The position numbers were made by a program, and so were the translations under genes. This document shows positions 1,419 to 36,218 of a stretch of DNA of 40,620 bases, piece by piece. Where the stretch lies: IMG/VR virus record IMGVR_UViG_2563366828_000005. One strand, 5' to 3'. Under the pieces are notes generated by a model. It did not search any database. It saw only the letters and a program-made list of their open reading frames with translations, and had not been told where the DNA came from. This DNA is from a virus. Its lineage: Duplodnaviria; Heunggongvirae; Uroviricota; Caudoviricetes. Positions within the stretch are counted from its first letter, which is position 1, and each line of letters begins with the position of its first letter.

Positions 1419-2489
1419 TTATTTGATTTCAATTTTGTCCCACTCCCTGCCTCTGTCATCACGATACTGTGATGCCATGGTGTCCGACTTATGCCCGAGA
1501 AGATGTTGAGCAAACTTATCGCTTATCTGCTTCTCATAGAGTCTTGCAGACAAACTGCGCAACTCGTGAAAGGTAGGCGGATCCCCTTCGAAGGAAAGAC
1601 CTGATGCTTTTCGTGCGCGCATAAAATACCTTGATACTGTGCCGGATGAAAGCGGTTCGCGACGAGTAGATGCAATTATGGTTTCTCCGCCAAGAATCTC
1701 TTTGCATTTATCAAGTGTTTCCTTCATTGATATTCCGAGAGCATCAACATGCAATGCTGTTGGGATGGCAATTTTTACGCCTGTTTTGCTTTGCTCGACA
1801 TAAAGATATCCATCTACGATATCAGACCACTTCATTTCGCATAAATCACCAACTCGCTGCCCGGTAACAACAGCCAGTTCCATTGCAAGTCTAAGCCAAC
1901 ATGGTGATGATTCTGCTGCTTGATAAATTTTCAGGTATTCGTCAGCCGTAAGTCTTGATCTCCTTACCTCTGATTTTGCTGCGCGAGTGGCAGCGACCGG
2001 GTTTGTTGTTATATGGCCTTCAGCTATTGCCTCTCGGAATGCATCGCTCAGTGTTGATCTGATTAACTTGGCTGACGCCGCCTTGCCCTCGTCTATGTAT
2101 CCATTGAGCATTGCTGCAATTTCTTTTGTGGTGATGTCTTCAAGTGGAACATCAGGTAGCCCCCTCCTTATTGCTTTAATTTTGCTCATGTAATTTATAA
2201 GTGTCTTCTGCTTGATTCCTCTGCTGGCGAGGATTTTTTCGTAGCGATCAAGCCATGAATGTAACGTAACAGAATTATCACTGTTGATTCTCGCTGTCAG
2301 AGGCTTGTGTTTGTGTCCTGAAAATAACTCAATGTTTGCCTGTATTGCTTCAGTAATTGCTATCCTCCTGTCTCTGCCTAATCCGAACTCTTTACCCGTC
2401 CTTGGGTCCCTGTAGCAGTAATATCCATTGTTTCTTATATAAAGGTTAGGGGGTAAATCCCGGCGCTCATGACTTCGCCTTCTTCCCAT
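1419..2489 (-). CDS. int: Tyrosine integrase, lambda Int type
   Basis: 356-aa ORF starting MGRRRSHERRDLPPNLYIRNNGYYCYRDP, recognised as lambda Int; adjacent to att core. Confidence 0.95.
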   Translation of the reverse strand: MGRRRSHERRDLPPNLYIRNNGYYCYRDPRTGKEFGLGRDRRIAITEAIQANIELFSGHKHKPLTARINSDNSVTLHSWLDRYEKILASRGIKQKTLINYMSKIKAIRRGLPDVPLEDITTKEIAAMLNGYIDEGKAASAKLIRSTLSDAFREAIAEGHITTNPVAATRAAKSEVRRSRLTADEYLKIYQAAESSPCWLRLAMELAVVTGQRVGDLCEMKWSDIVDGYLYVEQSKTGVKIAIPTALHVDALGISMKETLDKCKEILGGETIIASTRREPLSSGTVSRYFMRARKASGLSFEGDPPTFHELRSLSARLYEKQISDKFAQHLLGHKSDTMASQYRDDRGREWDKIEIK

Positions 2490-2685
2490 TTCTGATCCTC
2501 TTCAAAAGGCTACCTGTTACTGGTCGATTTAAGTCAACCTTTACCGCTGATTCGTGGAACAGATACTCTCTTCCATCCTTAACCGGAGGAGGGAATATCC
2601 TGCATTCGCGCACCCATCGACGAACTGTTTCAAGGCTTCTTGGGCGTCGCTGGCGAGCGTTCCACTCCTGAAGTGTCAAGTACAT
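2467..2685 (-). CDS. xis: Excisionase Xis
   Basis: 72-aa product MYLTLQEWNARQRRPRSLETVRRWVRECRIFPPP = lambda Xis; overlaps int start as in lambda; the longer ORF in the track is an upstream in-frame extension. Confidence 0.9.
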   Translation of the reverse strand: MYLTLQEWNARQRRPRSLETVRRWVRECRIFPPPVKDGREYLFHESAVKVDLNRPVTGSLLKRIRNGKKAKS

Positions 2686-2799
2686 CGCAAAGTCTCCGCA
2701 ATTACACGCAAGAAAAAGCCGCATTGATGCGGCGATGGTAGGTCTGGATATCATTGAGCAATGAACAGGCCTCATCGAGTGTGAGGCTGTATGGCTCTA

Positions 2800-3144
2800 T
2801 TATTTCACCTCTTGTTGTGACATTGTTGAAAAATGGATACCAGCTCGTTGCTGCCAGATGATCCAACCGAGAGTCATATCCCATGCCATGTATTCGTTAT
2901 CGCCGTTTTTTGCTCTCCGACGATCGACTGTTTTACCGAAACGCTTTTCCATAAATAATTCATAGGCTGCGCGTTCATCTGGCTCAACTTCCAGAGATGC
3001 CAGTGCAATCCGTGCCAGTTCTAAATCATTTTCAAGCTCAGCGCGAATCTCAGCGAATGCACTCTGTGTTAAGGCGAACTCAATGCTCTGCACTTTATTC
3101 CGTGCGCGCTCAAGCAGTGCATGGTAGTTAATTTCGGTTGTCAT
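2800..3144 (-). CDS. Hypothetical early-left protein (114 aa)
   Basis: ORF whose start overlaps the stop of the upstream PAPS-reductase-like gene (ATGA-style coupling); no family recognised. Confidence 0.5.
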   Translation of the reverse strand: MTTEINYHALLERARNKVQSIEFALTQSAFAEIRAELENDLELARIALASLEVEPDERAAYELFMEKRFGKTVDRRRAKNGDNEYMAWDMTLGWIIWQQRAGIHFSTMSQQEVK

Positions 3145-4019
3145 ACCCCTACCTCTTCGAATTCCAATTCCAATTGATCACCCCAGATTTCACATGACTC
3201 TGAACACGAGCCGGTATCGAATCGCCTGGCCTGTACCATCGCCTGATACAAATTTCTGTAGTCGCTGTTGGCAGACATTCTGGCAATTCCGTCAAGCGTC
3301 AGGTGACCACGGTACATAATGTCTTTACCTGTTCTGCGATGACCATCCCTGACGTGTTTGCCTGTAACCAGCTCATTAAAAACTCGCATCAGACCTGGTT
3401 CGTCTTTACATGCAAGCCCCAGCTTTTGCGTTGACTTTTTGATGCAGAAAACACAGTTCCCGAGATGCTCCGGGATTTGCAAATCAAAAGGTTGTTTTCG
3501 CCACCACCGGATAACATCCGACTTATCAAAATCTGACAGCTCGGCAAGATACCGGACGCCCGATTTCGGTTTCAGCCTACGGGGTTCGTCTGCACGAATA
3601 CCCAGCCATGTGATGTAATTACCTCGCCCGAAATGGTTATCGCAGTATTTCGTGAAAGGGATGAGTTTTAGCCTGTCAGTACAGAACGCGCCGCCGATGT
3701 ATGGCGTGCCGTACTTTTTAACCATGTCCATAAACGGTTTAAGCACCGGCATTCGTGTCTGAATATCCGTTGGCTCCCATTCTGTATAACCATTTGGCTG
3801 CCCAAGCTCAGGATTTATATCGACCTGTAACACAGTTAGTGGTATGTCCCAGAACTTCACAACCTCCCGGATAAAGCGGTATGTCAGCGGATGTTCGCAA
3901 CCGGTATCCATAAAGATGTAGCAGACGTTATTGCCAGCCTTTCTTTGTTCTTCCATCAGGTGAACAAGATATGCGGATGTTCTCCCGCCAGAAAAACTAA
4001 CTACATGAGTTATGCACAT
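3141..4019 (-). CDS. PAPS reductase-like / PP-loop ATP pyrophosphatase superfamily protein
   Basis: 292-aa ORF with N-terminal SFSGGRTS PP-loop-like motif and a C-terminal Cys cluster (CVFC, CSESC); family call by motif only. Confidence 0.7.
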   Translation of the reverse strand: MCITHVVSFSGGRTSAYLVHLMEEQRKAGNNVCYIFMDTGCEHPLTYRFIREVVKFWDIPLTVLQVDINPELGQPNGYTEWEPTDIQTRMPVLKPFMDMVKKYGTPYIGGAFCTDRLKLIPFTKYCDNHFGRGNYITWLGIRADEPRRLKPKSGVRYLAELSDFDKSDVIRWWRKQPFDLQIPEHLGNCVFCIKKSTQKLGLACKDEPGLMRVFNELVTGKHVRDGHRRTGKDIMYRGHLTLDGIARMSANSDYRNLYQAMVQARRFDTGSCSESCEIWGDQLELEFEEVGV

Positions 4020-4546
4020 TTGCGTAATTCCGATAACTCGTTGAAGCGTTCCATAAACATCCCGTAGGCATGGCCCGGTGCCAGTGGAATAACTTTGAAC
4101 ATCTCTGTTGCCGGGATACCTTCCAGTACTGGCCAGAAAGAGCCATCATCAAGCCCGAGATCGCGGCGTTCAGTTGCCAGCATGATGAGATCGGCATATT
4201 TCACGGGTGTACTCATAACTGGGGGTAACCCGTATTTCTCACGGATTACGGCGTCTATTTTTTCTTCCATCCGTTTATAGTCAGGAAGAAGGCGTTTCAG
4301 TGGCGCCGGGATGTCCTGGCAATACGCTTCTGTTGCATCATGCATTAACGCTTCAAAAGCAAATTCCTGCGGCACCAGTTGGCTGCAAAGCACCGCATGT
4401 TGGGCGACGCTGTAGAAATGTGAAAGATGTCCTGCAAAGCGACAGATATTTGAAAGGGAAACCGCGATATCGTTAATAACGATGTCGTCTTGATTTATCT
4501 TGTCATAATAAAAATGCTTCCCGGAAAAAGTTTTAATAAATGACAT
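4010..4546 (-). CDS. HD-domain phosphohydrolase (YfdR-like 5'-deoxynucleotidase family)
   Basis: 178 aa from MSFIKTF; H..HD metal-binding motif (SHFYSVAQHAV, LMHDATEAY); the upstream in-frame extension in the track is probably not translated. Confidence 0.7.
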   Translation of the reverse strand: MSFIKTFSGKHFYYDKINQDDIVINDIAVSLSNICRFAGHLSHFYSVAQHAVLCSQLVPQEFAFEALMHDATEAYCQDIPAPLKRLLPDYKRMEEKIDAVIREKYGLPPVMSTPVKYADLIMLATERRDLGLDDGSFWPVLEGIPATEMFKVIPLAPGHAYGMFMERFNELSELRKCA

Positions 4547-4673
4547 TTTGTTCTCCACGTATATGCGCTGCACCGCGCTGAATTCTGGTAAAAGGAAGTC
4601 CTCACCATCCGGCGATTATTGAGTTAATTACGTTTCCATAAATTCCCCCGCAGGGGCATTTGCAGTAATGAAA

Positions 4674-5498
4674 TCAGGCGGTGAAAGTACCAATAAAGGT
4701 TTCTACTTTGCTGTCTTTGAATTTCTCAACAAGCAGATCACGAAATTCGTTAGCCATTTCTTCCTGCACCGCTTCCAGCTGAATAATGCGCAGAACCAGT
4801 ACAGGACGATCGCCAGTGATAATGCTGAGGCGTAATTTAAATGGACGTTCTTTCAGGCCTTCAAACGGAACGCATTTAAATTCAAATGCCACTGGCATAA
4901 TGTCTTTGGTCTTCGCTTCGACAGACTCCATCAGGGAGCGTTTGCCGCTGAAGTCATTATCTTCAAAATCAGCGGTCTGGTTCGCTTCAATTGTGATTTT
5001 ACGGATAGCCGCCGCCGCTTTGGTTGCCTGAATGGCGTCACCATTAGCATCAAAGCCCACAAGGTAGTCGGCCCAGTCTTCAATCCATTCTGCCAGTGAT
5101 TTCTGGGAGTTACGCTCGCCATTAACAGACAACAGAGCAGAGAACGGTGCTGTCTTTTTCAGTTTGAGAGTGGCGGTGTTATCTGCGTGACCTGGTTCAT
5201 CAATAGTACCCAGGTTAAGCACACTGACGGCACGCATATTATCAGCATCGATAAAGCAGCGGGTGCCTTCATCTGCAAGATCTTTAGAATAACGGGTAAA
5301 GTCATCGATGCTGGCAGTGGAAAGCGCACCACGGAAACGGAAGCGATTTAAATTAAATTTTTCCAGATCATGAATGCGGAAATTCTCAGGCAATGCCACA
5401 GCATCGGCACCAATCTTACTGATAATTTCATTAACACCCTGAGCAGAAATAAGGGCATGGATTTGATTAATTGCGGTTGCGTCTAAGTTCTGAGACAT
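4674..5498 (-). CDS. DUF2303 (YfdQ-like) family phage protein
   Basis: 274-aa ORF; size and gene order (120-aa, 274-aa, 178-aa HD, PP-loop protein) resemble the yfdP-yfdT block of E. coli CPS-53 as recalled; not verified. Confidence 0.5.
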
Positions 5499-5563
5499 AA
5501 TAAGTCCTCACTATATAAAGATATTCAGTGATGAGATAAATAATCGGTTAATTAAGAACGATA

Positions 5564-5926
5564 TTAATGACCTGCTGCGCGGAGTTTTCCGTCAGGTTCA
5601 CCGGCAAGAGTCAGTAATTGTCCCTGGTCTTCCTGCAGAATAGTCAGGCGACCACCGCGATTGACATACATCGGCGTTTCGGTGGTGTCTTCTTCGGAAA
5701 TTTTCCCGCGGTTAGTCGGGCGAACATATGAGAGTTTGTGTTTGATTTTCACACGGTTCTCATCAAATGGTTCGATTTCCAGGTTGAGTGAGACCTTACC
5801 TTTGGTTTTCGTGTTCATCACACCGGAAGCGACTTCACTGAGAACTGCGCCGATTTTGGTTTCAAATACGCCGCCGTCCAGCTCCCCGATAAATGCCTGC
5901 ACATCAGTACTGCGTTCGCTAGCCAT
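5564..5926 (-). CDS. Hypothetical early-left protein (120 aa)
   Basis: Start chosen at ATG (MASERSTDVQ) preceded by GGAG about 9 nt upstream; the 226-aa ORF in the track extends into a GC-rich non-coding stretch and is probably too long. Confidence 0.5.
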   Translation of the reverse strand: MASERSTDVQAFIGELDGGVFETKIGAVLSEVASGVMNTKTKGKVSLNLEIEPFDENRVKIKHKLSYVRPTNRGKISEEDTTETPMYVNRGGRLTILQEDQGQLLTLAGEPDGKLRAAGH

Positions 5927-5949
5927 TTTGCTGCTCCTCATCATATCGA

Positions 5950-6390
5950 CCCTGCAAGGTCGGTTAGTTTCTCCACAAAACAGAGAAGAACACCTGCGGT
6001 GACTGCCGCCCGGATGGATTGGGTTATGAGCCCGTCGTCCGGTGATGCTCTTCTCTGTTTTGTAAAAAGGACGGTACCAGCCGGAAGCAAGGGTACAAAC
6101 TGGTACCGCCAGGACTACACACAGCATAAAGTTGTGGTGCCGGGTGCCTCCCGGTGCCTGGCGAAGGTTGCACACCAGGCGGGTGGGTATCCACAGAAGG
6201 TCGACTGTCAGCCTCAACCTTAACCCGCGTGCGCTGAGCCGCATTCACCACAACGCTAAGGATTCTCTCTGGTTGAAAATACTTAGCTGTTATGTGCCTG
6301 CTTTTAGCCACATCAGGCGAGGTGGACCTGGTTATTCCCCAACAACAAGGATTCGGTTAATCTGGTTATCCCCAACAACGCAAAAGGAAA
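5950..6390. other. GC-rich, highly structured non-coding stretch (candidate ncRNA or regulatory element)
   Basis: No convincing ORF; 15-bp perfect inverted repeat ACAAAACAGAGAAGA (5975-5990 / 6049-6063), GGTACCAG/CTGGTACC inverted repeat, tandem GGTTATyCCCCAACAAC motif (6340-6380). Confidence 0.3.
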
Positions 6391-6394
6391 AGAA

Positions 6395-6829
6395 ATGTCC
6401 GGTAATATCTATACGCTGTACAAATCCCACTGTGAAAATGTTGGAAAGTATCGGGGCATTGAAATCAGTGGGGTAGTGTCATCAGTCGAAATAAGCAAAG
6501 TTGAATCAAGGGCAACATTACTTACTCTTCTGGACCTTGTCTTAAATGAGCACCGGAAGAAATTCGGCACACCCTATAATCAGTTGAATGGGAAAAAGGC
6601 TCTGGTTCACCTTATTCTGATGAAGCATCACTGGATGCCAAAACAGATTAATGAGATGAAATTTGATGAACTTCTTCTTTCAATTCAGGATGAACTCACG
6701 CTTGATAAAATAAGTGTAACCGCCCAGAAATTTTTAGATTATCGAGACTGGAGATCACAAATTCATCACTTTGATGATTTTGACGAAAATGAATGGGATC
6801 CTAATTTGTCTGCACAATATCTAAAGTAA
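6395..6829 (+). CDS. Hypothetical 144-aa protein, AT-rich moron on the strand opposite the early-left operon
   Basis: Clean ORF with AAGGA about 10 nt upstream; AT-rich versus flanks; hairpin plus T-run terminator downstream on the same strand. Confidence 0.55.
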   Translation: MSGNIYTLYKSHCENVGKYRGIEISGVVSSVEISKVESRATLLTLLDLVLNEHRKKFGTPYNQLNGKKALVHLILMKHHWMPKQINEMKFDELLLSIQDELTLDKISVTAQKFLDYRDWRSQIHHFDDFDENEWDPNLSAQYLK

Positions 6830-7007
6830 CATCCTGTGATAAAACCGTGATTTCCTGATCCAGTTTTTTTAAGGAGTCTATTGTTTCCTGTCGATAAGAC
6901 AGCACTTCACGAAGCTGGTTTATAGCTGCCAGCTTCTTTGTCATCCACTCATAAATTTCCTCATCTGTGTAGCCAGGCGCGACGATTTTTGGTTCTGTTT
7001 TGTGCAT
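6801..7007 (-). CDS. Hypothetical 68-aa protein, first ORF downstream of the putative PL
   Basis: ATG (MHKTEPKIV) preceded by GAGGAGG at 6-nt spacing; 3' end overlaps the convergent 144-aa gene by 29 nt. Confidence 0.45.
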   Translation of the reverse strand: MHKTEPKIVAPGYTDEEIYEWMTKKLAAINQLREVLSYRQETIDSLKKLDQEITVLSQDVTLDIVQTN

Positions 7008-7064
7008 TTCACACCTCCTCAAGTTATCAGTTACTTGTTGATGGGGACCAGATTGTTAAAGAGC

Positions 7065-7090
7065 GAAGCGTCCTATAGGGCGCTTTTTTT
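7065..7090 (+). terminator. Intrinsic terminator, plus strand
   Basis: Stem AAGCGTCC / GGGCGCTT with TATA loop followed by TTTTTT. Confidence 0.45.
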
Positions 7091-7263
7091 GTTGCTAACG
7101 AATCATCCGGTCATTCATACGCCACCGGCGGCTACTTCGTGGGCGTCCTGCCTGTTCGTTTTTGACATTTACTGACCTCTTACGACACATGCACCGTGCA
7201 CCGTGTTGCAACCAGATTTTGTTGTAATCCTGTAGTTGGTCTGGAACAAAAGATAAAATTAAA

Positions 7264-7300
7264 TTGCGAGATATGCAAGTAATATTTGCGAAATATGCAA
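7264..7300. promoter_or_regulatory. Putative OL operators / PL region
   Basis: Two 15-bp sites TTGCGAGATATGCAA and TTGCGAAATATGCAA 7 bp apart; same TTGCG-type motif recurs in the cI-cro intergenic region. Confidence 0.45.
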
Positions 7301-7310
7301 AACGGTGGGT

Positions 7311-7334
7311 AATAAAAAGCCACCTTTCGGTGGC
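7311..7334 (-). terminator. Intrinsic terminator downstream of cI
   Basis: On the minus strand: stem GCCACC / GGTGGC followed by a U-rich tract, 20 nt past the cI stop. Confidence 0.5.
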
Positions 7335-7354
7335 CGATGGATGGGATATTGAGG

Positions 7355-8047
7355 TTAATTATGTCTCTTAAGGGTTTGCGACTGACTGATTAAGACCTTT
7401 CCAAAGACCATAAATCGGTGTTCGTTTTCGCTAGTAATTCCCCATTCACGGTAAATCTGGTTATCAGAAATCACCAGCAGTTTGTCAGGAATCATTTGAA
7501 GTCTTTTAACGTATATTTTGTCATCAAAACCAAAGACATATATACCATCACCATCAAACTGATTGATGCTGACATCAACGAAGATGAGATCTCCTGGCTC
7601 AATGGTTGGACACATACTGTCCCCACGAACGTTGATAACTTTGATGTGATTGGCTGGTCGTCCGCCGAACATTGATACAGCATTATCAGTTCTGTATTCG
7701 ATGGCATGAATCACATCAATGACATCACCGCCCTGGATAAGGCCATTTCCCGCACTGGCACTGATATCCAGCATTTCAATACGGAACACATCCTTCACCT
7801 GCGCAACATCCTCATTATTACTGTTTTTATATACAGTATTACTTTTGAGGGCAGAGGTAAAGAGATCAGCAATATCAACACCTAAGCTCTTGGCAATATT
7901 ACTCAGTGTTTGTTCGGTAAATTGTTTTTGCTTACCCGTTTCTAAGCGCGAGATGTTCGCCGCATCTACTCCTATTGCTTCAGCGAGATCGGCGATTTTC
8001 ATGTTCTTCGCTTGGCGAAGTTGTCTGACTCGGTTTCCTATGTTCAT
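7355..8047 (-). CDS. cI: CI-type prophage repressor (HTH_XRE N-terminal domain, S24 LexA-like peptidase C-terminal domain)
   Basis: 230-aa ORF; N-terminal HTH (QLRQAKNMKIADLAEAIGVDAANISRLETG), C-terminal GDSMCPTIEPGDLIFVD autocleavage-type motif; divergent from a cro-like gene. Confidence 0.85.
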   Translation of the reverse strand: MNIGNRVRQLRQAKNMKIADLAEAIGVDAANISRLETGKQKQFTEQTLSNIAKSLGVDIADLFTSALKSNTVYKNSNNEDVAQVKDVFRIEMLDISASAGNGLIQGGDVIDVIHAIEYRTDNAVSMFGGRPANHIKVINVRGDSMCPTIEPGDLIFVDVSINQFDGDGIYVFGFDDKIYVKRLQMIPDKLLVISDNQIYREWGITSENEHRFMVFGKVLISQSQTLKRHN

Positions 8048-8144
8048 GCGTTTATTACATTTCTTTATTGCGTGATAAGCAAATCAACTTGCGCAAAATA
8101 ATTGCGTGAAATAACATGCATAACGCGCAATATTTGGAGGGTAT
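8048..8144. promoter_or_regulatory. OR / PRM-PR divergent promoter-operator region
   Basis: 97-bp AT-rich intergenic region between divergent cI and cro-like genes with repeated TTGCG(T/C) motifs (e.g. TTGCGTGATAAGCAA at 8068-8082). Confidence 0.55.
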
Positions 8145-8405
8145 ATGCAATCACCATTACGAAATGTGCGTAAGGCGCATGGTTTCACTTTGCAGCATGT
8201 TGCTGCGGGTGTTCAAGTCAATCCAGCGACGTTGAGTCGTATTGAGAGGCTGGAGCAGATTCCATCTATCGAACTTGCAGAACGTTTAGCCAATTTTTTT
8301 AAGGGTGAAGTCAGCGAAATGCAGATTCTTTATCCGGCACGTTTTCAATCTAGCCAAAACCAGAATGGGTTTAAACCACAGGAACAGGAGGTAAGCCGTG
8401 GGTAA
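8145..8405 (+). CDS. Cro-like HTH transcriptional regulator
   Basis: 86-aa ORF with HTH (GFTLQHVAAGVQVNPATLSRIERLEQ); divergent from cI. Confidence 0.65.
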   Translation: MQSPLRNVRKAHGFTLQHVAAGVQVNPATLSRIERLEQIPSIELAERLANFFKGEVSEMQILYPARFQSSQNQNGFKPQEQEVSRG

Positions 8406-8949
8406 GCATCATTGGAAAGTGGAAAAACAACCTGAGTGGTACGTGAAAGCTGTCAGAAAAACTATCGCGGCATTGCCAGGGGGTTACGCTGAAGCTGCTG
8501 ACTGGCTGGATGTAACAGAGAACGCTTTATTCAACCGCCTTCGTGCAGATGGCGATCAGATTTTCCCGTTGGGATGGGCAATGGTTTTACAGCGTGCTGC
8601 TGGCAATCACCACATTGCGGATGCTGTCGCACAGTCTGCTGGTGGGGTGTTTGTATCACTTCCTGAAATTGAGGAAGTAGAGAACGCCGATATCAACCAG
8701 CGCCTGTTGGAGGTTATTGAACAGATCGGCAGTTATTCAAAACAGATTCGTTCAGCAATTGAAGACGGGGTGGTGGAACCACACGAGCAGGCAGCAATTA
8801 ACGACGAGCTGTACATGTCAATTTCGAAGCTGCAGGAGCATGCAGCACTGGTCTACAAAATCTTTTGCGCTCCAGAAAAGAGTGACGCCCGCGAGTGTGC
8901 AGCTCCGGGCGCCGTGGCGTTTTGTGTCTGTGGAGAAACTAACGCATGA
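8398..8949 (+). CDS. Hypothetical regulatory protein in the CII position (possibly YdaT-like)
   Basis: 183-aa ORF overlapping the cro-like stop; position matches cII / ydaT of lambdoid prophages; family not verified. Confidence 0.4.
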
Positions 8950-9284
8950 ACAGTTTAACAACACACTACCGTCGCTCGCAACTGATTGCGCTTCCTGTAC
9001 CGGGTGGAAAAGCGAAGGTGGAATATTGCTATGCAGTGAATGTACCAGGTGACAGGGAAATTGTAACCCACAGCTTTGCTGAGTGGGCTGTGGGTGATTT
9101 CAACCGGCAGAAGGAGACAGTCCTTTGCGACAAGTTAACCGCTGGTTCAAAGATCACTACGGAGTGCCCGTCAGAGTCATTCGTTGGGAACCGGAAACAC
9201 AACGGGTTATCTACCTCCGCGAAGGCTATGAGCATGAATGCTTCAGTCCGCTCGAACAGTTTCGTCGTAAATTCAGGGAAATAG
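8946..9284 (+). CDS. Hypothetical protein, possibly frameshifted
   Basis: 112-aa ORF start-coupled to the upstream gene; C-terminal half is Ser-rich and odd while a different frame (9125-9304) reads as more typical protein. Confidence 0.3.
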
Positions 9285-9293
9285 AGGTCGGTC

Positions 9294-10235
9294 ATGAGCA
9301 CTAAATTAACCGGCTATGTATGGGATGGTTGCGCTGCGTCAGGCATGAAGTTATCCAGCGTGGCAATTATGGCCCGCCTGGCTGATTTCAGTAATGACGA
9401 AGGTGTGTGCTGGCCATCAATTGAAACCATTGCCCGCCAGATTGGCGCGGGGATGAGTACCGTCAGAACGGCTATCGCACGACTGGAAGCAGAAGGCTGG
9501 TTAACGCGTAAGGCGCGTCGCCAGGGTAACCGCAATGCGTCGAATGTTTATCAGCTTAACGTTGCGAAGCTTCAGGCAGCGGCATTTTCTCAACTGTCAG
9601 ATTCTGACCCGTCAAAATCTGACGCATCAAAATCTGACCCGTCAAAATTTGATGCGTCGAAATCTGGCAAAAAAGCGGGTTTTCACCCGTCAGAATCTGG
9701 CGGGGATCCGTCAGTAAAATCAAAACATGATCCGTCAGATAAAAAACCTTCTCGTCCGGACGCTTCGCAACCGGACACGCAGACGGCTGAACAGAATTTT
9801 TTAACTCGCCATCCTGATGCGGTTGTATTCAGCCCTAAAAAGCGCCAGTGGGGAACGCAGGATGATTTGACCTGCGCACAGTGGCTCTGGAAAAAAATCA
9901 TCGCCCTGTACGAGCAGGCCGCCGAATGTGACGGCGAGGTGGTACGTCCGAAAGAACCGAACTGGACAGCCTGGGCAAATGAAATTCGCCTGATGTGTGT
10001 ACAGGACGGTCGTACCCACAAACAAATCTGCGAGATGTACAACCGTGTCAGCCGCGACCCGTTCTGGTGCCGTAACGTGCTCAGCCCGTCGAAGCTGCGG
10101 GAAAAATGGGATGAACTTTCCCTGCGCTTATCGCCGTCCGTCAGCACGTACACAGAAAAACGCGAAGACCCGTACTTCAAAGCCAGTTACGACAATGTGG
10201 ACTACAGCCAGATCCCGGCAGGATTCAGGGGGTGA
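9294..10235 (+). CDS. Replication initiation protein (O-like, winged-helix N-terminus) containing the origin iterons
   Basis: 313-aa ORF; N-terminal HTH-like region; internal DNA direct repeats encode a reiterated DPSKSD peptide, as in lambda O with ori inside the gene. Confidence 0.55.
   Translation: MSTKLTGYVWDGCAASGMKLSSVAIMARLADFSNDEGVCWPSIETIARQIGAGMSTVRTAIARLEAEGWLTRKARRQGNRNASNVYQLNVAKLQAAAFSQLSDSDPSKSDASKSDPSKFDASKSGKKAGFHPSESGGDPSVKSKHDPSDKKPSRPDASQPDTQTAEQNFLTRHPDAVVFSPKKRQWGTQDDLTCAQWLWKKIIALYEQAAECDGEVVRPKEPNWTAWANEIRLMCVQDGRTHKQICEMYNRVSRDPFWCRNVLSPSKLREKWDELSLRLSPSVSTYTEKREDPYFKASYDNVDYSQIPAGFRG
9594..9740. repeat. Iteron-like direct repeats (putative origin of replication)
   Basis: At least six copies of CCGTCA(A/G)AATCTGA-like 12-14-bp units within the replication gene. 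Confidence 0.55.
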
Positions 10236-10720
10236 TCATGAGCCTTTTGAATGACGTTCAGAAATTCATTGAAGCCCATCCGGGGTGTACTTCCGGAGAC
10301 ATTGCGGATGCTTTTGCAGGTTACTCACGGCAGCGAGTTCTGCAGTCAGCAAGCAAGTTACGTCAGAGTGGGCGTGTGGCTCACCGTTGTGAAGAGGATA
10401 CACGCAGACATTTCCCGCGCCAGGCTGAGATATCGCAGGAGCCGGAACCAGTTTGTGAAACCAGACCTGTGCGCAATTTCTATGTCGGCACTAACGACCC
10501 CCGGGTGATTTTGTGCCTGACCCGCCAGGCTGAAGAACTGGAGTCCAGGGGCTTATTCCGTCGAGCTGCAACGGTGTGGATGGAGGCATTCCGTGAAAGC
10601 CACTCCCAGCCAGAACGAAACAATTTTCTGGCGCGTCGTGAGCGGTGCTTACGGAAAAGCAGCAAGCGCGCTGCATCGGGTGAAGAGTGGTATCTGTCAG
10701 GGAATTACGTGGGGGCTTAA
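10232..10720 (+). CDS. Hypothetical protein (162 aa) in the P position
   Basis: ORF coupled to the replication gene stop; no Walker motifs, so not an obvious DnaC/P-type loader. Confidence 0.4.
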   Translation: MIMSLLNDVQKFIEAHPGCTSGDIADAFAGYSRQRVLQSASKLRQSGRVAHRCEEDTRRHFPRQAEISQEPEPVCETRPVRNFYVGTNDPRVILCLTRQAEELESRGLFRRAATVWMEAFRESHSQPERNNFLARRERCLRKSSKRAASGEEWYLSGNYVGA

Positions 10721-11046
10721 TGACGACGTTAACTCAATGCCAGCAGCAGGTGCTGGATATGCTGATTTCTTACCAGAAAGAACGTGGCTTCCCGCCAACC
10801 AATCAGGAGGTGGCTACCATGCTGGGATACCGTTCAGTGAATGCAGCGGTGGAGCATCTTCGCGCACTGGAGAAAAAAGGCGTCATCACGATAAAGCGTG
10901 GCGTGGCCCGGGGCATCACGCTTCATACCGCGGTGAAGGACGACGATAGCGAGGCGGCCGGGATTATCCGCGCACTGCTTGCTGGTGAGGAAAACGCCAG
11001 GCCGCGTGCAGCCCACTGGTTACATGAGAGGGGGCTGAAAGTATGA
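10720..11046 (+). CDS. LexA-like N-terminal DNA-binding domain protein (winged helix only, no peptidase domain)
   Basis: 108 aa from MTTLTQCQQQVLDMLISYQKERGFPPTNQEVATMLGYRS, resembling the LexA DNA-binding domain; start overlaps the upstream stop. Confidence 0.5.
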   Translation: MTTLTQCQQQVLDMLISYQKERGFPPTNQEVATMLGYRSVNAAVEHLRALEKKGVITIKRGVARGITLHTAVKDDDSEAAGIIRALLAGEENARPRAAHWLHERGLKV

Positions 11047-11432
11047 AGCTGATTCTGCCTTTTCCACCCAGCGTGAACACCTACTGGCGACACCCCAACA
11101 AAGGGGCATTTGCTGGTAAGAGCCTGATAAGCGCGGCGGGGCGAAAATTCCAGAGTGCGGCGTGCACAGCAATAGTTGAGCAGTTACGTCGTCTGCCGAA
11201 ACCAACGTCGGCACCTGCTTCAGTGGAGATCGTGTTGTTTCCTCCGGATAACCGGATCCGCGATCTGGACAACTATAACAAGGCGCTGTTTGACGCCCTG
11301 ACCCACGCGGGTGTGTGGGAAGACGACAGCCAGGTGAAAAGAATGCTGGTTGAGTGGGGACCGGTTATCCCGAAAGGGAAGGTCGAGATCACTATCAGTA
11401 AGTACGAGAAAACGGCGGGTGCAGCCGCCTGA
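11043..11432 (+). CDS. rusA: Holliday junction resolvase RusA
   Basis: 129-aa ORF MKLILPFPPSVNTYWRH, DxDN motif, typical nin-region position. Confidence 0.8.
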   Translation: MKLILPFPPSVNTYWRHPNKGAFAGKSLISAAGRKFQSAACTAIVEQLRRLPKPTSAPASVEIVLFPPDNRIRDLDNYNKALFDALTHAGVWEDDSQVKRMLVEWGPVIPKGKVEITISKYEKTAGAAA

Positions 11433-11451
11433 TCAAGAGGAGAAACGAAGT

Positions 11452-12261
11452 ATGAATAATCTGATGGTCATTGATGGTATTGAAGTTCGTCGTGATGCTT
11501 ATGGGCGTTACAGCCTGAACGATCTGCATCGCGCAGCAGTAGCATCTGGTGCAAATGCCAGAACCAAGGAGCCAGGAAAGTTTCTTTCCAGCCAACAAAC
11601 TGTTGAGCTTGTTCATGAATTGACCAACACCCAGAATTTGGGTGTTGACCCGGTGAGTGTGATTCATGGGGGAAATGAACGGGGAACGTATGTCTGCAAG
11701 GAACTGGTGTATGCCTATGCAATGTGGATCAGTCCGTCATTCCATCTGAAGGTGATCCGTACTTTCGATATGATAACCAGCACACTGGAAAAATTATCCG
11801 GGCAGGCTGCTGACAAGATGCAGGCTGGCGTGATCCTGCTGGACTTTATGCGCCGGGAGTTAAACCTGTCTAACTCTTCAGTGCTTGGTGCCTGTCAGAA
11901 ACTCCAGGAGGCTGTTGGCTTACCGAATCTGGCACCGCGCTATGCCATTGATGCTCCTGCTGATGCACACGATGGCTCAAGTCGCCCGACACTGTCACTG
12001 AGTGCACTGTTGAAACAGTATGGTATCCGCCTGACGGCTAATCAGGCATATCACCAGATGGTGAAGCTGGGGATCGTCGAGCAGCGCGAACGATACAGCC
12101 GTACCGCGATTAACAACATCAAAAAATTCTGGTCGCTGACAGCGAAAGGCTGCATGTTCGGCAAGAACATCACCAGTCCCGCAAATCCGCGCGAGACGCA
12201 GCCACACTTCTTCGAATCCCGATTCCCTGAGCTGTTAAAGCTGCTCGATACCGTTCATTGA
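11452..12261 (+). CDS. KilA-N domain protein
   Basis: 269 aa from MNNLMVIDGIEVRRDAYGRYSLNDLHRAA with AGAGGAG upstream; the longer ORF in the track overlaps rusA and is probably an extension. Confidence 0.5.
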   Translation: MNNLMVIDGIEVRRDAYGRYSLNDLHRAAVASGANARTKEPGKFLSSQQTVELVHELTNTQNLGVDPVSVIHGGNERGTYVCKELVYAYAMWISPSFHLKVIRTFDMITSTLEKLSGQAADKMQAGVILLDFMRRELNLSNSSVLGACQKLQEAVGLPNLAPRYAIDAPADAHDGSSRPTLSLSALLKQYGIRLTANQAYHQMVKLGIVEQRERYSRTAINNIKKFWSLTAKGCMFGKNITSPANPRETQPHFFESRFPELLKLLDTVH

Positions 12262-12262
12262 G

Positions 12263-13258
12263 GTGACCGTGAGAGCACTACTGACCCCTGAAATTGCCCC
12301 GCGTATGGGGATCGTATTGTTCAGACCCGGTTCAGAGCTGATGCCCCTGTTTATGCAGGGGCGTGTCCTGCTGGAGCCTGAGCCGGAGCGTTATTCATCT
12401 TTCGCCAGTGGTGCCGTTCCGGCGGTATCACAACCGCTGGCGGATGATCCTGCCGTTCGGGCCGTGTTCCGCAATGAGGCAGTGATCCGTCGTGCTGGTG
12501 GCGTGGAATGTCTTGAAAGCTGGTTACTTCGTGAAAAAGGCTGCCAGTGGCCTCATTCCGACTGGCACAGCGAGAACATGACCACAATGCGACACGCGCC
12601 GGGTGCAATCCGTCTGTGCTGGCACTGTGATAACCAGCTGCGCGATCAGTTCACGGAACGGCTGGAATCAATGGCAACGGATAACTGTGCCCGCTGGGTG
12701 TTGTCTGTTGTGCGTCGGGATCTCGGTTTTGATGACAGTCACGTTGTGACAATGCCGGAACTGTGCTGGTGGCTGATTCGTAATGACCTGGCGGATGCCT
12801 TACCGGAAAGTGCAGCCTGTAAGGCACTGAGATTACCGAAGCCTGTTGTGCCGTCTGTCACCCGGGAAAGTGACCTTGTTCCTTCGGTTCCTGCCACCAG
12901 CATCATCCAGGATAAAGCGAAAAAGGTGCTGGCGCTGAAAGTGGATCCGGAGTCGCCGGAGTCTTTTATGTTACGCCCAAAACGTCGCCGCTGGGTTAAT
13001 GAAAAGTACACGCGCTGGGTTAAGACGCAGCCGTGTGCATGTTGTGGAAAGCCTGCTGATGATCCCCACCATCTGATAGGCCACGGTCAGGGGGGAATGG
13101 GTACAAAAGCGCATGATCTCTTTGTGTTGCCTTTGTGCAGAAAGCATCACGACGAGCTGCATGCGGATACCATGGCATTTGAAGAGAAGTATGGCTCCCA
13201 GCTGGAGTTGATATTTCGTTTTATCGATCGTGCGCTGGCAATTGGTGTGCTGGCCTGA
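12263..13258 (+). CDS. DUF968 (YdfU-like) nin-region protein with C-terminal HNH-like Cys/His motif
   Basis: 331-aa ORF with GTG start; C-terminal CACCGKPADDPHHLIGHGQGG...CRKHHDELH. Confidence 0.5.
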   Translation: MTVRALLTPEIAPRMGIVLFRPGSELMPLFMQGRVLLEPEPERYSSFASGAVPAVSQPLADDPAVRAVFRNEAVIRRAGGVECLESWLLREKGCQWPHSDWHSENMTTMRHAPGAIRLCWHCDNQLRDQFTERLESMATDNCARWVLSVVRRDLGFDDSHVVTMPELCWWLIRNDLADALPESAACKALRLPKPVVPSVTRESDLVPSVPATSIIQDKAKKVLALKVDPESPESFMLRPKRRRWVNEKYTRWVKTQPCACCGKPADDPHHLIGHGQGGMGTKAHDLFVLPLCRKHHDELHADTMAFEEKYGSQLELIFRFIDRALAIGVLA

Positions 13259-13275
13259 TTTTGTGGAGAAAGTTG

Positions 13276-13632
13276 ATGCGTGATATGTATGAAGTAATGG
13301 ATCGTTGGGGAGCTTGGGCTGCTTCAGACAATAGCGGAGTGGACTGGCAGCCGATAGCGGCTGGTTTCAAGGGACTTTTACCTCATGGCAAAAAGTCACG
13401 GATTCAGTGTGATGATGACGAAGGCATCATGATAGACAGTTGTGTGGCTCGGTTGAGAAGGTATAAACCAGAGGAATATGAGCTCATCATCGCCCACTTT
13501 GTTATCGGTATCTCATTACGCACTATTGCGAAGAAGAGAAAATGCTCTGATGGCACAATTAGGAAGGAACTGCAAACTGCAATGGGGTTTGTTGACGGCT
13601 GTTTAGCAATGTTAGCTTATAGTATGGCATAA
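13276..13632 (+). CDS. Q: Late-gene antiterminator Q (phage 21/82 type)
   Basis: 118 aa from MRDMYEVMDRWGAWAASDNSGVDWQPIAAGFKGL, recalled as phage-21-type Q; GGAG 8 nt upstream. Confidence 0.75.
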   Translation: MRDMYEVMDRWGAWAASDNSGVDWQPIAAGFKGLLPHGKKSRIQCDDDEGIMIDSCVARLRRYKPEEYELIIAHFVIGISLRTIAKKRKCSDGTIRKELQTAMGFVDGCLAMLAYSMA

Positions 13633-14102
13633 AAAATAAAATAGATTTACTGCCGATTTTTCAAAAAAGACTGGGAACTGTTTATATCCAACGTAAATAA
13701 GGCCTCCATAAAACATGGCTGATGCGAGATATTTAACAGTTCTCATCCTTTTTTTAGCTTTATCAATCAAACCTGTAATGCTACTCTTAATACTATCTGC
13801 ATTATCTTTGATTTCTTTATTTTCTTCAAACTTTAAATACTTATCGAAAGCGGACTCCACTCGAGAACGTAAGTTGTCGAATGTTTCATTGAATATCTCA
13901 ATAGAAATGTAATTGACTTTTTTTATCATCCAAAGTCCTGCGATAATCAATATTGCCTCGGTTGTTTCATTAGCCTTCACTAAGCCACCAGCAGCTATTA
14001 ATGCACCGGGAATAGTCAATGCTTTTGTCTGATTAGATGATATGAATGGTGATGCTGCCAACTTACTGATTTAGTGTATGATGGTGTTTTTGAGGTGCTC
14101 CA

Positions 14103-14378
14103 GTGGCTTCTGTTTCTATCAGCTGTCCCTCCTGTTCAGCTACTGACGGGGTGGTGCGTAACGGCAAAAGCACCGCCGGACATCAGCGCTATCTCTGCTC
14201 TCACTGCCGTAAAACATGGCAACTGCAGTTCACTTACACCGCTTCTCAACCCGGTACGCACCAGAAAATCATTGATATGGCCATGAATGGCGTTGGATGC
14301 CGGGCAACCGCCCGCATTATGGGCGTTGGCCTCAACACGATTTTCCGCCATTTAAAAAACTCAGGCCGCAGTCGGTAA
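14103..14378 (+). CDS. insA: IS1 InsA
   Basis: 91-aa ORF with zinc-finger motif CPSC...CSHC, matches IS1 InsA. Confidence 0.95.
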
Positions 14379-14800
14379 CCTCGCGCATACAGCCGGGCAG
14401 TGACGTCATCGTCTGCGCGGAAATGGACGAACAGTGGGGATACGTCGGGGCTAAATCGCGCCAGCGCTGGCTGTTTTACGCGTATGACAGGCTCCGGAAG
14501 ACGGTTGTTGCGCACGTATTCGGTGAACGCACTCTGGCCACACTGGAGCGTCTTCTAAGCCTGCTGTCGGCCTTTGAGGTCGTGGTATGGATGACGGATG
14601 GCTGGCCGCTGTATGAATCCCGCCTGAAGGGAAAGCTGCACGTAATCAGCAAGCGTTACACTCAGCGAATTGAGCGGCATAACCTGAATCTGAGACAACA
14701 TCTGGCAAGGCTGGGACGGAAGTCACTGTCGTTCTCAAAATCGGTGGAGCTGCATGACAAGGTCATCGGGCATTATCTGAACATAAAACACTATCAGTAA
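14297..14800 (+). CDS. insB: IS1 InsB (normally expressed as InsAB' fusion via -1 frameshift)
   Basis: 167-aa ORF matching IS1 InsB, overlapping insA in the -1 frame. Confidence 0.9.
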
Positions 14801-15604
14801 GTTGGAGTCATTACCATATGAATTCGTTAATTTTACTCGTGAACTCAAGATTTTTCTCATCGAGTTCGTTAAGAATTTTATTTACAGAAAACCTCTTTGT
14901 GTAAATCTCATATAGTTCATCATATTTTTTCCTGACGAGTTCAGTAGAGTTAAGCAAGTCAAAGAAATTGAACGTACCATTTGCTTTAAATACTTCGTTT
15001 ATGGCTGAGCGTATAACGAGCTTGCGCTCGCTTTTGTGTAAATCATTGATTTTTATTGTGTCGAGAAGCTCCTTTATAATTTCATATTTAAGAGACGAGT
15101 TCGATAAGCGATTAATCTCGCTATATTGTAAAAAATGCGTGAGTTCGACTGTATAACTTTTGTCTTCATTGGTGAAAAATAAGACAGAGCAGTCACTGTT
15201 ATGATGATCAGCAATTAATGAAAGGATATCTTTCCACATAAAGAAAATATGGATTTTTTCGATGCTTTCATTCTTAGAAGTAGGGAGTATTAACGGCGTT
15301 CCGATGATATAATTTTTCGGAAGAGCGTTTTGGGTGTTTACTCTAGACCAAAAAGACTCAACATTCTCATAAATTATAGCGTCATCCCAAGATGAAGCTT
15401 GGCGATCTAGCCAAATTTCATTATTTTCGATGCAGGTTGTTGCCTTTTTATAACCTATAGATTGTAACAGTCTAATTATTTCAGAACTATTTACAATAAC
15501 AATGCTTTCTTCAAGACTTATGACAGTGTAGTAGCCCTCAACTCTGCTTGAGGCTCCGTTAATAATCTGCGCTAATCTTGATAAGTCATCAGCAATTGTC
15601 ATTA

Positions 15605-16780
15605 TTAGCTGTCTCTATATCTTTTGAGTTCATCATAATTTGCCTGACTCAATTTTATCACAATTTCGCATTTGTTGTCAGTGAGAATTACAGGCTTATT
15701 TGACTTTTCGTCTCCAATAGCTCCACGCATTATTTTCAACTTAAAATTATTGTCGTTATCTGCCACTTCAATTGTAAGCGCGCTTTCAGCTGCTTTAGGA
15801 GTTGGTTCAAATTGAGGGTCAATCTGGAAACCATTAAGATTAACAAAATCGACAAACGTTCCCTTACATTTGTGTGAATCAGTCAGGCATGAGTCAATTA
15901 TTTTTGAAATATCCTCTATCTTAACGGACTTATTTCCGTGTTTATCTTTTGATTTTTTTTCCAGTAAGGATTTAACTTCGTTGTCAATAGTATCACGCAG
16001 TACACGACCGAGTGAGTTTTTACTAGCAAAAATATCTATAGCACTGAATAATTGCTGAATGCTTCTTTTATTGTCCGAATCATGTCGGCAACCTAATGAG
16101 TCTTTGAAAAAATCGCTTTTAGATTTACCTTGCAAGAAATGTACATATGAGTCACCCTTGTTTTCTGGATAACTGGCTTCGAATAAAGTTAAATCGAACA
16201 TCGCAGCCTGCCGTAAGGCATCGGTATTAATTGGATTTAATCTTGTTGGGGTCAACTTATCCGAATCAAAGTCATAGGCGCTTTGTTTATCAACCATTAC
16301 GATTAGAAGTTTCCCCAAATCCTCTGGTTCGGTAGACTTATAGTGGATGAAAACAACGCTCCCCCCCTGAAGTTGGGCAACTCTCGATTCGTTATTAGCA
16401 TTATGTTTAAGCTTCTCTATTATAGCTCTAGATAAATCAATGAATTCATTATTTTTATTAATGTATTTTTTTAGGATCGTAGGAATGGATGAAGGGTTGT
16501 GATCTGAGTCTAGGAAGTTATGAAATTTGTTTTTTCGGCTAAATTTTTTCTCAATTCTGGTTATGAATTCAGATGTGACTTCATTTTTTAGATCCCAAAC
16601 TTCACCTAATCGATAATCAAATGCTCTTGAATCATTTTTTTCAAGATTTGCTGTTACAGCACCAATAGGAAAGTACGATTGTTTGCCCAGCACTACAACA
16701 TGAGGCGTGGCACCGCATTTATCGCAAGCTACAGTTGGGTCGTCAAGAACATTGCCACATTCTAAACAAGTTATATCCAT
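15605..16780 (-). CDS. Hypothetical 391-aa protein with N-terminal zinc ribbon; first gene of the two-gene cassette
   Basis: AT-rich ORF; CLECG...CDKCG at residues 5-22; stop is 2 nt from the start of the downstream IS1-disrupted gene. Confidence 0.6.
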   Translation of the reverse strand: MDITCLECGNVLDDPTVACDKCGATPHVVVLGKQSYFPIGAVTANLEKNDSRAFDYRLGEVWDLKNEVTSEFITRIEKKFSRKNKFHNFLDSDHNPSSIPTILKKYINKNNEFIDLSRAIIEKLKHNANNESRVAQLQGGSVVFIHYKSTEPEDLGKLLIVMVDKQSAYDFDSDKLTPTRLNPINTDALRQAAMFDLTLFEASYPENKGDSYVHFLQGKSKSDFFKDSLGCRHDSDNKRSIQQLFSAIDIFASKNSLGRVLRDTIDNEVKSLLEKKSKDKHGNKSVKIEDISKIIDSCLTDSHKCKGTFVDFVNLNGFQIDPQFEPTPKAAESALTIEVADNDNNFKLKIMRGAIGDEKSNKPVILTDNKCEIVIKLSQANYDELKRYRDS

Positions 16781-16897
16781 TATATATCCCGAATTATAAG
16801 AATGAATTTTTATGTGGCTGAAAATTCTATCAAAACACTAACGCGTACGCAAAAAGTATTGTATTGTGTTAAGAGTGGTTACTTCGCCACACAGCTT

Positions 16898-16929
16898 AAA
16901 CCCGCCGTCGAGCGGGTTTTGTCGTTTCT
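16898..16929 (+). terminator. Hairpin plus T-rich tract upstream of the lysis cassette (possible tR'-type terminator)
   Basis: AAACCCGC / GCGGGTTT stem followed by TGTCGTTTCT in the 291-bp intergenic region before the holin gene. Confidence 0.35.
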
Positions 16930-17071
16930 GGGCCTGGGGATTCGTTGGGCCTAGTCTATCCCGCAGTTATCCATTGGCTCGGCTTCTTTGACGTTTCCGC
17001 TTCTGATTTGCGGTACATGATGTTTCCTCAATTTGCACCTGCTGTATCAGCGAGGTGAGAGATAACTACAA

Positions 17072-17398
17072 ATGCCTCATAACCCAAATACTTGGCTGGA
17101 GTTGGTCCAGAGCTGGTGGCGTGGAGACACACCGCTGGGCGCAGTGATTATGTCGATCGTTATGGCTGGCTTGCGCATTGCCTATTTTGGCGGTGGTGGT
17201 GGCTGGAAGAGAAAAACGCTCGAGATTTTGCTCTGTGGCGCTCTGACGCTGACCTTTGCATCCGCTCTTGAATATGTCGGATGGCCTAAATCGCTTTCTG
17301 TTGCCATTGGTGGTGGCGTGGGGCTGATCGGTGTCGATGCTATTCGTGGGGCTGCAATGCGAGTAATCGGTAACAAATTTGGTAGCTCGAAGGAGTAA
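17072..17398 (+). CDS. Holin (three predicted TM segments)
   Basis: 108-aa ORF directly upstream of the endolysin with three hydrophobic segments and a charged C-terminus. Confidence 0.6.
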   Translation: MPHNPNTWLELVQSWWRGDTPLGAVIMSIVMAGLRIAYFGGGGGWKRKTLEILLCGALTLTFASALEYVGWPKSLSVAIGGGVGLIGVDAIRGAAMRVIGNKFGSSKE

Positions 17399-17401
17399 TT
17401 T

Positions 17402-17878
17402 ATGCAGGCACTAAATTCCCAGCGTAAAGCTTTCCTGGATATGGTGGCATGGTCAGAAGGAACGGATAACGGGCGACAACCGACACGTAACCACGGTTAT
17501 GATGTTATTGTTGGTGGCGAACTGTTCACTGATTACTCCGATCACCCTCGCAAACTTGTCACGCTAAACCCCAAACTCAAATCAACAGCTGCCGGACGTT
17601 ACCAGCTTCTTTCACGCTGGTGGGATGCTTACCGTAAACAGCTTGGCCTGAAAGATTTTTCTCCAGAAAGCCAGGACGCTGTAGCTCTGCAGCAGATTAA
17701 AGAGCGTGGTGCTTTACCGATGATTGACCGCGGCAGTATTCGTCAGGCAATCGACCGTTGCAGCAATATCTGGGCGTCGTTACCTGGTGCAGGTTACGGT
17801 CAGTATGAACATAAAATCGGTGACCTGATTGCCCGATTTAAAAAAGCTGGTGGGGTAGTAAATGAAGCTGAGATATAA
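17402..17878 (+). CDS. R: Endolysin, lambda R-type lytic transglycosylase
   Basis: 158-aa product with QRKAFLDMVAWSEGTDNGRQPTRNHGYDVIVGGELFTDYSDHPRKLVTLNPKLKST, near-identical to lambda R as recalled. Confidence 0.9.
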   Translation: MQALNSQRKAFLDMVAWSEGTDNGRQPTRNHGYDVIVGGELFTDYSDHPRKLVTLNPKLKSTAAGRYQLLSRWWDAYRKQLGLKDFSPESQDAVALQQIKERGALPMIDRGSIRQAIDRCSNIWASLPGAGYGQYEHKIGDLIARFKKAGGVVNEAEI

Positions 17879-36215: not shown

Positions 36216-36218
36216 TTC

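Follow-up and report, generated by a model that had tools for sequence, protein, structure and literature searches.

The window analyzed here, a stretch of 40,620 nucleotides (IMG/VR virus record IMGVR_UViG_2563366828_000005), represents an E. coli prophage that is lambdoid and SfV/CPS-53-like and lies beside ybhC, with an integrase gene at 1419-2489. A gtrA, gtrB, gtr(type) O-antigen glucosylation module lies at the prophage end. On the opposite (minus) strand, bounded by the gene for the Q antiterminator (13261-13632; Pfam Phage_antitermQ) and a lambda-family holin gene (17072-17398), is an AT-rich cassette (33-36% GC, 34% overall, vs 50-57% in the flanks) that carries the two genes of the phage defense system DS-1. 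The second of these genes is interrupted by an IS1 element. Apart from IS1, positions 1-28858 and 31230-37754 can be aligned colinearly to another prophage, one bearing an intact copy of the locus; the two differ between 28858 and 31230 and beyond 37754.

The first gene of the operon, DS-1A (15605..16780, minus strand), is intact and encodes a 391-aa protein identical to WP_000355468.1, which combines an N-terminal CxxC...CxxC zinc ribbon with a YejK/NA37 nucleoid-associated domain. The protein matches Pfam NA37 (YejK) at 1.2e-23 and the solved YejK structure 9be2_A at 1.2e-9, and its score of 451.4 bits exceeds the cut-off of 330 for the NCBIfam model NF053868 (DS1_1, 'nucleoid-associated anti-phage protein'). 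Upstream of DS-1A is a promoter-like site (16806..16833, minus strand) composed of TTGATA, a 16-nt spacer, and AAAAAT; this is a consensus match only, and a weak one (9 of 12 positions), and the total of such hits in the region does not rise above the shuffled expectation.

The second gene, DS-1B, follows after a gap of 2 bp and is present in two pieces. The first is a 263-aa ORF (14811..15602, minus strand) made up of native residues 1-262 followed by a Trp codon and by a TAA stop that the right end of IS1 provides. The second is an orphaned 3' part (13612..14040, minus strand) that comprises codons 263-404 and the stop, has neither an ATG nor a promoter of its own, and at its 3' end runs 21 bp into the end of the Q gene. 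No single intact ORF of the window scores above the cut-off of 315 for NF053869 (DS1_2, 'anti-phage protein'); the restored ORF alone does so, with 375.2 bits. With DS-1B broken up in this way, the locus is a disrupted DS-1.

The intact pair, WP_000355468.1 and WP_000150292.1, was published as system D390 and named DS-1 (DeWeirdt, Mahoney and Laub, Science 2026, PMC13092281). Cloned under its native promoter in a low-copy plasmid and carried by MG1655, DS-1 was validated and scored as a replicated defense, with -log(EOP) values of 7.6 for Bas1, 2.7 for Bas26, 1.7 for Bas3, 1.7 for T3, 1.0 for T5, and 0.9 for T7; against T4, DS-1 was not outstanding in the published screen (PMC13092281). The same study assigned by HHpred a ZF domain (3-43) and a YejK domain (42-382) to DS-1A and none to DS-1B; it covers intact DS-1 only and gives neither a mechanism nor mutants (PMC13092281). 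The gene pair is kept in other bacteria: in Serratia a DS-1B homolog of 31% identity lies directly downstream of a DS-1A homolog of 42% identity, and in Pseudoalteromonas the corresponding values are 29% and 35%, with the zinc ribbon of DS-1A retained in both. The PADLOC v2 models gave no match for DS-1A or DS-1B; DS-1 is later than that library. An Rfam scan of 13000-17500 returned no match, and among 50,697 phage records a megablast search found none that matched the cassette.

The IS1 element and the restored gene

Inspection of the window sequence places a complete IS1 of exactly 768 bp at 14048..14815 on the plus strand, in the orientation opposite to that of the DS-1 operon. Its terminal inverted repeats, IRL (14048-14070; GGTGATGCTGCCAACTTACTGAT) and IRR (14793-14815; GGTAATGACTCCAACTTACTGAT), are imperfect repeats of ~23 bp, identical at 19 of 23 positions. 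Within the element and also on the plus strand lie insA (14103-14378) and the overlapping insB' frame (14297-14800), and their ORFs match Pfam Zn_ribbon_InsA (3e-21), HTH_Tnp_IS1 (1.7e-30), and DDE_Tnp_IS1 (3e-75). The A6C -1 frameshift motif TTAAAAAAC is located at about 14350, in the insA/insB' overlap, and an element identical to this one carries the RefSeq annotation 'programmed frameshift'. Across the whole window, IS1 ends were found only at the 14048-14815 element, with 0 chance matches expected. The element is flanked by two copies of the octamer ATATGAAT, at 14040..14047 on the left and 14816..14823 on the right. This direct repeat stops at 8 bp, with no match at the 9th, and a chance match of 8 bp at fixed positions has a probability of 4^-8, about 1.5e-5; target duplications of IS1 are reported to be 8 or 9 bp long (PMC12428005). 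In size, inverted repeats, genes, frameshift motif, and duplicated target, the 14048-14815 element is an IS1.

Comparison with intact loci identified the empty site. The window aligns to an intact prophage (L006) as two segments, 1-14047 and 14816 onward, whose overlap is exactly the 8-bp octamer, and in intact loci this octamer occurs as a single copy. When IS1 is deleted together with one copy of ATATGAAT, ORFs 14811-15602 and 13612-14061, both on the minus strand, become a single ORF of 404 aa with the in-frame junction ...KINEFI|SSNQTKALTIPG..., and the restored protein is identical to WP_000150292.1 of the intact loci. Over the restored 2,684 bp, which span both genes and the upstream intergenic region, DNA identity with an intact locus (L001) is 100%. 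As the restored locus carries 0 substitutions relative to intact copies, the insertion is very recent and does not belong to a long process of decay.

The earlier note had described a complete 768-bp IS1 inside the second cassette gene, and the length, inverted repeats, and Pfam matches confirm it. It had also pointed to an 8-bp direct repeat around the element, and had taken the two minus-strand ORFs for one gene split by IS1 and rejoined in frame by its removal. Both points held: the octamer is a true target duplication, being single in intact loci, and the alignment to related prophages without IS1, the check suggested at the time, recovered an empty site with one octamer and the in-frame junction.

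An origin of the interruption in assembly has to be weighed here, as IS1 is multicopy and repeats are often misassembled, such that the assembler may have misplaced the element. Against this stands the perfect duplication of an octamer that intact loci carry only once. The same truncated ORF is, moreover, present in an NCBI draft assembly (contig of 676 kb), on another contig >1 Mb, and in sequencing runs whose assemblies were made independently. From this recurrence of the 263-aa product in other assemblies, an assembly artifact can therefore be dismissed as practically excluded.

What the insertion removes from DS-1B

The IS1 cut falls between I262 and S263. A profile search of 1.84 billion representatives yielded 776 relatives of DS-1B (representatives of 50%-identity clusters), and most of the best 150 of these 776 are about 380-450 aa long, so that the full-length architecture of ~400 aa is the norm. 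In an alignment of 41 homologs, the best-conserved block of DS-1B comprises residues 226-284, and the cut lies inside this block. Eight of 18 invariant residues (Q266, K268, A269, P273, A275, A278, F327, and Y330) are removed by the insertion, as are 15 positions that are nearly invariant in the same alignment. In the search at 90% identity, the shorter entries with a source name were labeled partial, and no independent family of proteins composed of the N-domain only stood out in that search or among the best 150 of the 776 relatives at 50%.

The AF2 model of full-length DS-1B (pLDDT 84.8) consists of an alpha/beta N-domain (1-218) followed by helices 220-268, which spans the cut, 271-284, 288-331, 337-383, and 385-403. 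All three Kyte-Doolittle peaks, at 269-283, 290-304, and 366-380, lie after residue 262. The prediction that the C-terminal helices are transmembrane is based on hydropathy, where the maximum in a 19-residue window is a borderline 1.56; other support comes from the AF2 helices and from an analogy with the effector Pag2B described below. The N-domain is mildly acidic (pI 5.2, net charge -9). A structure comparison found no solved fold related to the N-domain, and the family profile of DS-1B matched no PDB sequence. The resemblance of DS-1B to CorA/Mrs2 channels and the ClyA pore is structural only and may go no further than that of generic helical bundles.

What is left in the truncated product is the alpha/beta N-domain together with the greater part of helix 220-268. 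That a 263-aa product without the hydrophobic tail results from the insertion, as had been noted earlier, is confirmed by these data, since the 142 C-terminal amino acids that are lost hold the hydrophobic helices at 269-283, 290-304, and 366-380. Both the invariant QxKA..P.A..A motif and the three hydrophobic helices, along with one amphipathic helix, now reside in the orphaned fragment. Expression of this fragment from IS1 was considered and judged unlikely, because a promoter scan detected no outward promoter-like site from IS1 toward the fragment and because the fragment has no ATG, the only start codon being a TTG inside IRL.

How this cut might affect function can be approached by way of PANGU, in which YejK-like nucleoid-associated proteins serve as sensors that detach from the nucleoid upon chromosome degradation by phage nucleases and then bind and activate an effector (bioRxiv 10.64898/2026.04.06.716658). 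Type II PANGU, which comes from an E. coli strain, consists of the sensor Pag2A and the effector Pag2B, the latter with an acidic DNA-mimic domain ('DMK') at its N-terminus and a transmembrane domain at its C-terminus (bioRxiv 10.64898/2026.04.06.716658). The isolated DMK domain binds Pag2A with a KD of 19 nM; neither gene can be dispensed with, toxicity was seen with none of the single-gene constructs, and the phenotype is one of abortive infection (bioRxiv 10.64898/2026.04.06.716658). By analogy, the nucleoid protein DS-1A of an intact DS-1 would sit on the chromosome and be released when phage nucleases degrade it. Released DS-1A would then bind the N-domain of DS-1B, and the transmembrane part of DS-1B would bring about the abortion of infection.

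In the interrupted locus, an active IS1 copy transposed between DS-1B codons 262 and 263, generating the 8-bp target duplication. DS-1A, which lies upstream in the operon and is untouched, could still be produced, together with a soluble 263-aa N-domain of DS-1B. With the motif after residue 262 and all membrane helices gone, the membrane-linked effector step would not take place and phage defense would be lost. Loss of defense by the IS1 allele is thus likely, judging from the lost motif and helices. Protection was shown only for the intact DS-1 operon (PMC13092281), and in the literature examined no published experiment was found in which only the C-terminal part was deleted. The allele amounts to a natural domain dissection, in which the soluble N-domain is separated from the conserved motif and the membrane helices of DS-1B, and residues 263-284 (SSxQxKALTIPGALIAxG) present themselves as the first mutagenesis target for the effector step, be it in DS-1 or in Type II PANGU.

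Selective and neutral accounts of the insertion

Among 5,426 complete E. coli genomes searched by megablast, 106 have the locus without interruption, all at 99% identity or higher, and none has IS1 at the site seen in the window. The exact 263-aa product was found in a draft genome, GCA_000351125.1, on the 676-kb contig mentioned above (locus L003); over 20.8 kb, this locus and the window are distinguished by 1 base. It was also found on one further contig >1 Mb and in a few sequencing-run assemblies, including a contig common to 6 samples. This distribution over few near-identical assemblies indicates that the allele belongs to one small clone.

Two other IS1-family insertions were found in the locus. 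In NZ_CP145671.1, an IS1 that is 100% identical to that of the window lies 67 bp upstream of the DS-1A start, flanked by the 8-bp duplication AACGCGTA, and in NZ_OZ547033.1 a divergent IS1-family element of 765 bp lies inside DS-1A with a 9-bp duplication. Together with the insertion in the window, the 2.7-kb locus has thus received three independent insertions of this family. Under a rough Poisson estimate that assumes ~10 IS1 copies per 5-Mb genome, ~0.5 hits would be expected in the 2.7-kb locus across 106 genomes vs 2 observed (about 0.1, not significant).

How often the gene is disrupted across genomes, a question raised by the earlier note, was examined in 86 of the 107 DS-1-bearing records. 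An uninterrupted 2,393-bp cassette at 99.7-100% identity was present in 73 of the 86 E. coli loci (~85%), and in the remaining 13 records the CDS is split or the coding region altered in length. Six of these loci were examined more closely, and all six carry indels in homopolymers (T8, T7, T6, A6, or C7), in five of the six within DS-1A. These alleles come mostly from long-read assemblies and may represent either slippage mutations or long-read errors. A reading of 'hypothetical protein (x2)' annotations as frequent frameshifts in DS-1B was dropped, since the examined cases fall mainly in DS-1A and entirely in homopolymers and constitute weak evidence.

The earlier note had suggested that the insertion would fit counter-selection against a toxic effector, while allowing for a neutral insertion. 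The first of these ideas did not find support, as DS-1 is tolerated from its native promoter and single-gene constructs of Type II PANGU are non-toxic, and it is weakened further by the intact state of most inspected loci, by the AT-rich target, and by the lack of any substitution since the insertion. Selection against toxicity as the reason for the insertion is accordingly less likely than a neutral hit, which is the better of the two readings.

A related account is adaptive inactivation. DS-1, as a damage-sensing abortive-infection system, might be costly and be knocked out for fitness, with IS1 acting as the commonest mutagen, and the cost could arise through activation during SOS, prophage induction, or nuclease stress. 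The PANGU model implies growth arrest upon activation, and the spread of the three independent IS1-family hits over DS-1B, the region 67 bp upstream of DS-1A, and the interior of DS-1A points in the same direction, as do the 13 records with a split CDS or length change. Against it stand the 73 loci that remain intact at 99.7-100% identity, the location of all six examined indels in homopolymers, where sequencing errors are possible, and the non-toxicity of the DS-1 and Type II PANGU constructs. The excess of observed over expected hits is not significant by the rough estimate even before the AT bias attributed to IS1 is taken into account, and the allele is limited to a handful of near-identical assemblies. 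We regard adaptive inactivation as unlikely on balance, even though the three IS1-family insertions and the homopolymer frameshifts leave some room for selection for loss. An extended form of the idea, in which DS-1 is a recurrent target for switching off by IS1, lysogens under SOS or nuclease stress gain from its loss, and DS-1A with the remaining N-domain may modulate the nucleoid, appears more doubtful still; were it true, the three IS1-family hits and the homopolymer frameshifts would be the footprint of selection for DS-1 loss.

It is also conceivable that the truncated product still has, or has acquired, a function, in which the soluble N-domain, possibly able to bind the nucleoid protein, would serve with intact DS-1A as a decoy, a regulator, or a membrane-independent defense. 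The 263-aa fragment modeled alone by AF2 is predicted to be well folded (pLDDT 89.9, pTM 0.81), DS-1A is intact and the operon promoter untouched, and the isolated N-terminal domain of the Type II PANGU effector binds its nucleoid protein tightly. Such a function is nevertheless very improbable: the residues lost are those best conserved in the family, most of the best 150 relatives of DS-1B are of about full length and the shorter named entries are labeled partial, and the allele is very rare and recent.

The reading that we prefer is a recent IS1 hit that probably disabled DS-1. Such a hit was probably opportunistic and neutral or near-neutral, falling in an AT-rich island and becoming fixed in one small clone. 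IS1 reportedly prefers AT-rich targets. The significance of the case is correspondingly limited, in that a defense system already named and validated has been knocked out by IS1 once more, within a single small lineage of E. coli. For annotators and defense-system finders, the locus should be scored as a disrupted DS-1 and not as an active one, and the IS1-family hits to the AT-rich cassette in three lineages show a route by which accessory prophage genes decay.

Comparison with known systems

The locus can be set beside three known systems. With the published DS-1, it shares DS-1A and the restored DS-1B, both identical at the protein level, and the layout agrees as well, with the two genes in the same order, 2 bp apart, and placed between the Q and holin genes of the prophage; it departs from the published system in that DS-1B is interrupted by IS1 after codon 262.

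With Type II PANGU, DS-1 shares a two-gene operon, a YejK-like protein encoded first, and an occurrence in E. coli. The mildly acidic soluble N-domain and C-terminal hydrophobic helices of DS-1B recall Pag2B, in a comparison made at the level of the published description. The systems differ in that DS-1A has a zinc ribbon as an extra N-terminal feature, the word 'zinc' having 0 occurrences in the PANGU preprint, and in phage range, with T4 and Bas34 reported for PANGU vs Bas1, Bas26, and T3 for DS-1; PANGU-Ecu, unlike DS-1, stands out against T4. DS-1 appears to have the architecture of Type II PANGU and, by analogy, may work like it.

Finally, the insertion itself shares with classical IS1 gene inactivation in E. 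coli all of the expected features, namely the length of the element, its repeats, the InsA/InsAB' genes, the frameshift motif, and the target duplication. The element is a textbook IS1, its target is published and annotated by NCBI, and the knock-out of accessory prophage genes by IS elements is already a familiar phenomenon. Only the site of insertion, in the most conserved motif of DS-1B, is particular to this case; relative to classical IS1 inactivation there is no difference in kind, and the target gene alone is new.

Transcriptional setting of the DS-1 cassette

The Q antiterminator gene (+) and DS-1B (-), the second gene of the two-gene anti-phage system DS-1, share 21 bp at their 3' ends (window 13612-13632) and thus converge. 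Transcription started at the DS-1 promoter would continue into Q in antisense, and the window's IS1 has a minus-strand terminator-like site (14188-14174) that could now lower this antisense transcription. At the other end of the cassette, the interval separating DS-1A from the holin gene contains a strong terminator-like hairpin (16898-16919, +), formed by AAACCCGC...GCGGGTTT and followed by a T-run. The ~240 bp that precede the holin gene (~16830-17071) are conserved, at 80-96% identity, in ~2,600 E. coli genomes without DS-1. They resemble the late promoter/terminator region; on that reading, DS-1 would lie between Q and the late promoter.

Further insertions and frameshifts in DS-1 loci

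A second, independent IS1 insertion was identified in strain S1-ZIM-01-A (NZ_CP145671.1; locus L002, 5773-6540). This 768-bp copy is identical to the window's IS1 and has the same orientation, is flanked by an 8-bp target duplication (AACGCGTA), and sits at the equivalent of window 16847/16848, 67 bp ahead of the DS-1A start codon and just upstream of the promoter-like site of DS-1A. It may alter expression of DS-1 or the adjacent late-gene control region. A third independent insertion, in isolate AF5 (NZ_OZ547033.1; locus L005, 3441-4205), is a 765-bp IS1-family element that is too divergent from the window's IS1 for a blastn match; it interrupts DS-1A at about codon 151 and generated a 9-bp target duplication.

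DS-1 is also frameshifted in the complete genomes of CB6886, FORC_069, EC2, MS 69-1, 21AR0303, and UID2309220009 (L007-L012), and every one of these frameshifts falls within a homopolymer. Those in DS-1A comprise T8 to T9 and T7 to T6 (two strains each) and C7 to C5, and those in DS-1B T6 to T5 together with A6 to A5. These changes may reflect real slippage or long-read error; unrelated strains carry identical split-protein accessions for the frameshifted genes.

Genomic carriers of DS-1 and its homologues

In isolate AF5, the Q/DS-1/holin module resides in a different lambdoid backbone (ybcN-ninE-ybcO-rusA-ylcG), and the module therefore moves between prophages. Strain MS 69-1 has two DS-1 copies, one chromosomal and the other, frameshifted, on NZ_CP146678.1 ('plasmid unnamed3'; L010). 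This circular 64-kb record also encodes the Q antiterminator and may represent either an excised prophage or a phage-plasmid. The window's prophage ends in a serotype-conversion module (37858-40620, -) encoding GtrA (120 aa), a GtrB-like family-2 glycosyltransferase (309 aa), and a GtrII-type glucosyltransferase (495 aa), whereas L006, an otherwise similar prophage with intact DS-1, carries an acyltransferase in its place.

Finally, a distant DS-1 homologue pair in Serratia marcescens (L013, 5423-6334) adjoins a resolvase and a BstA_C-domain protein, a setting that fits a mobile defence island. BstA_C-domain proteins are a known prophage defence family.
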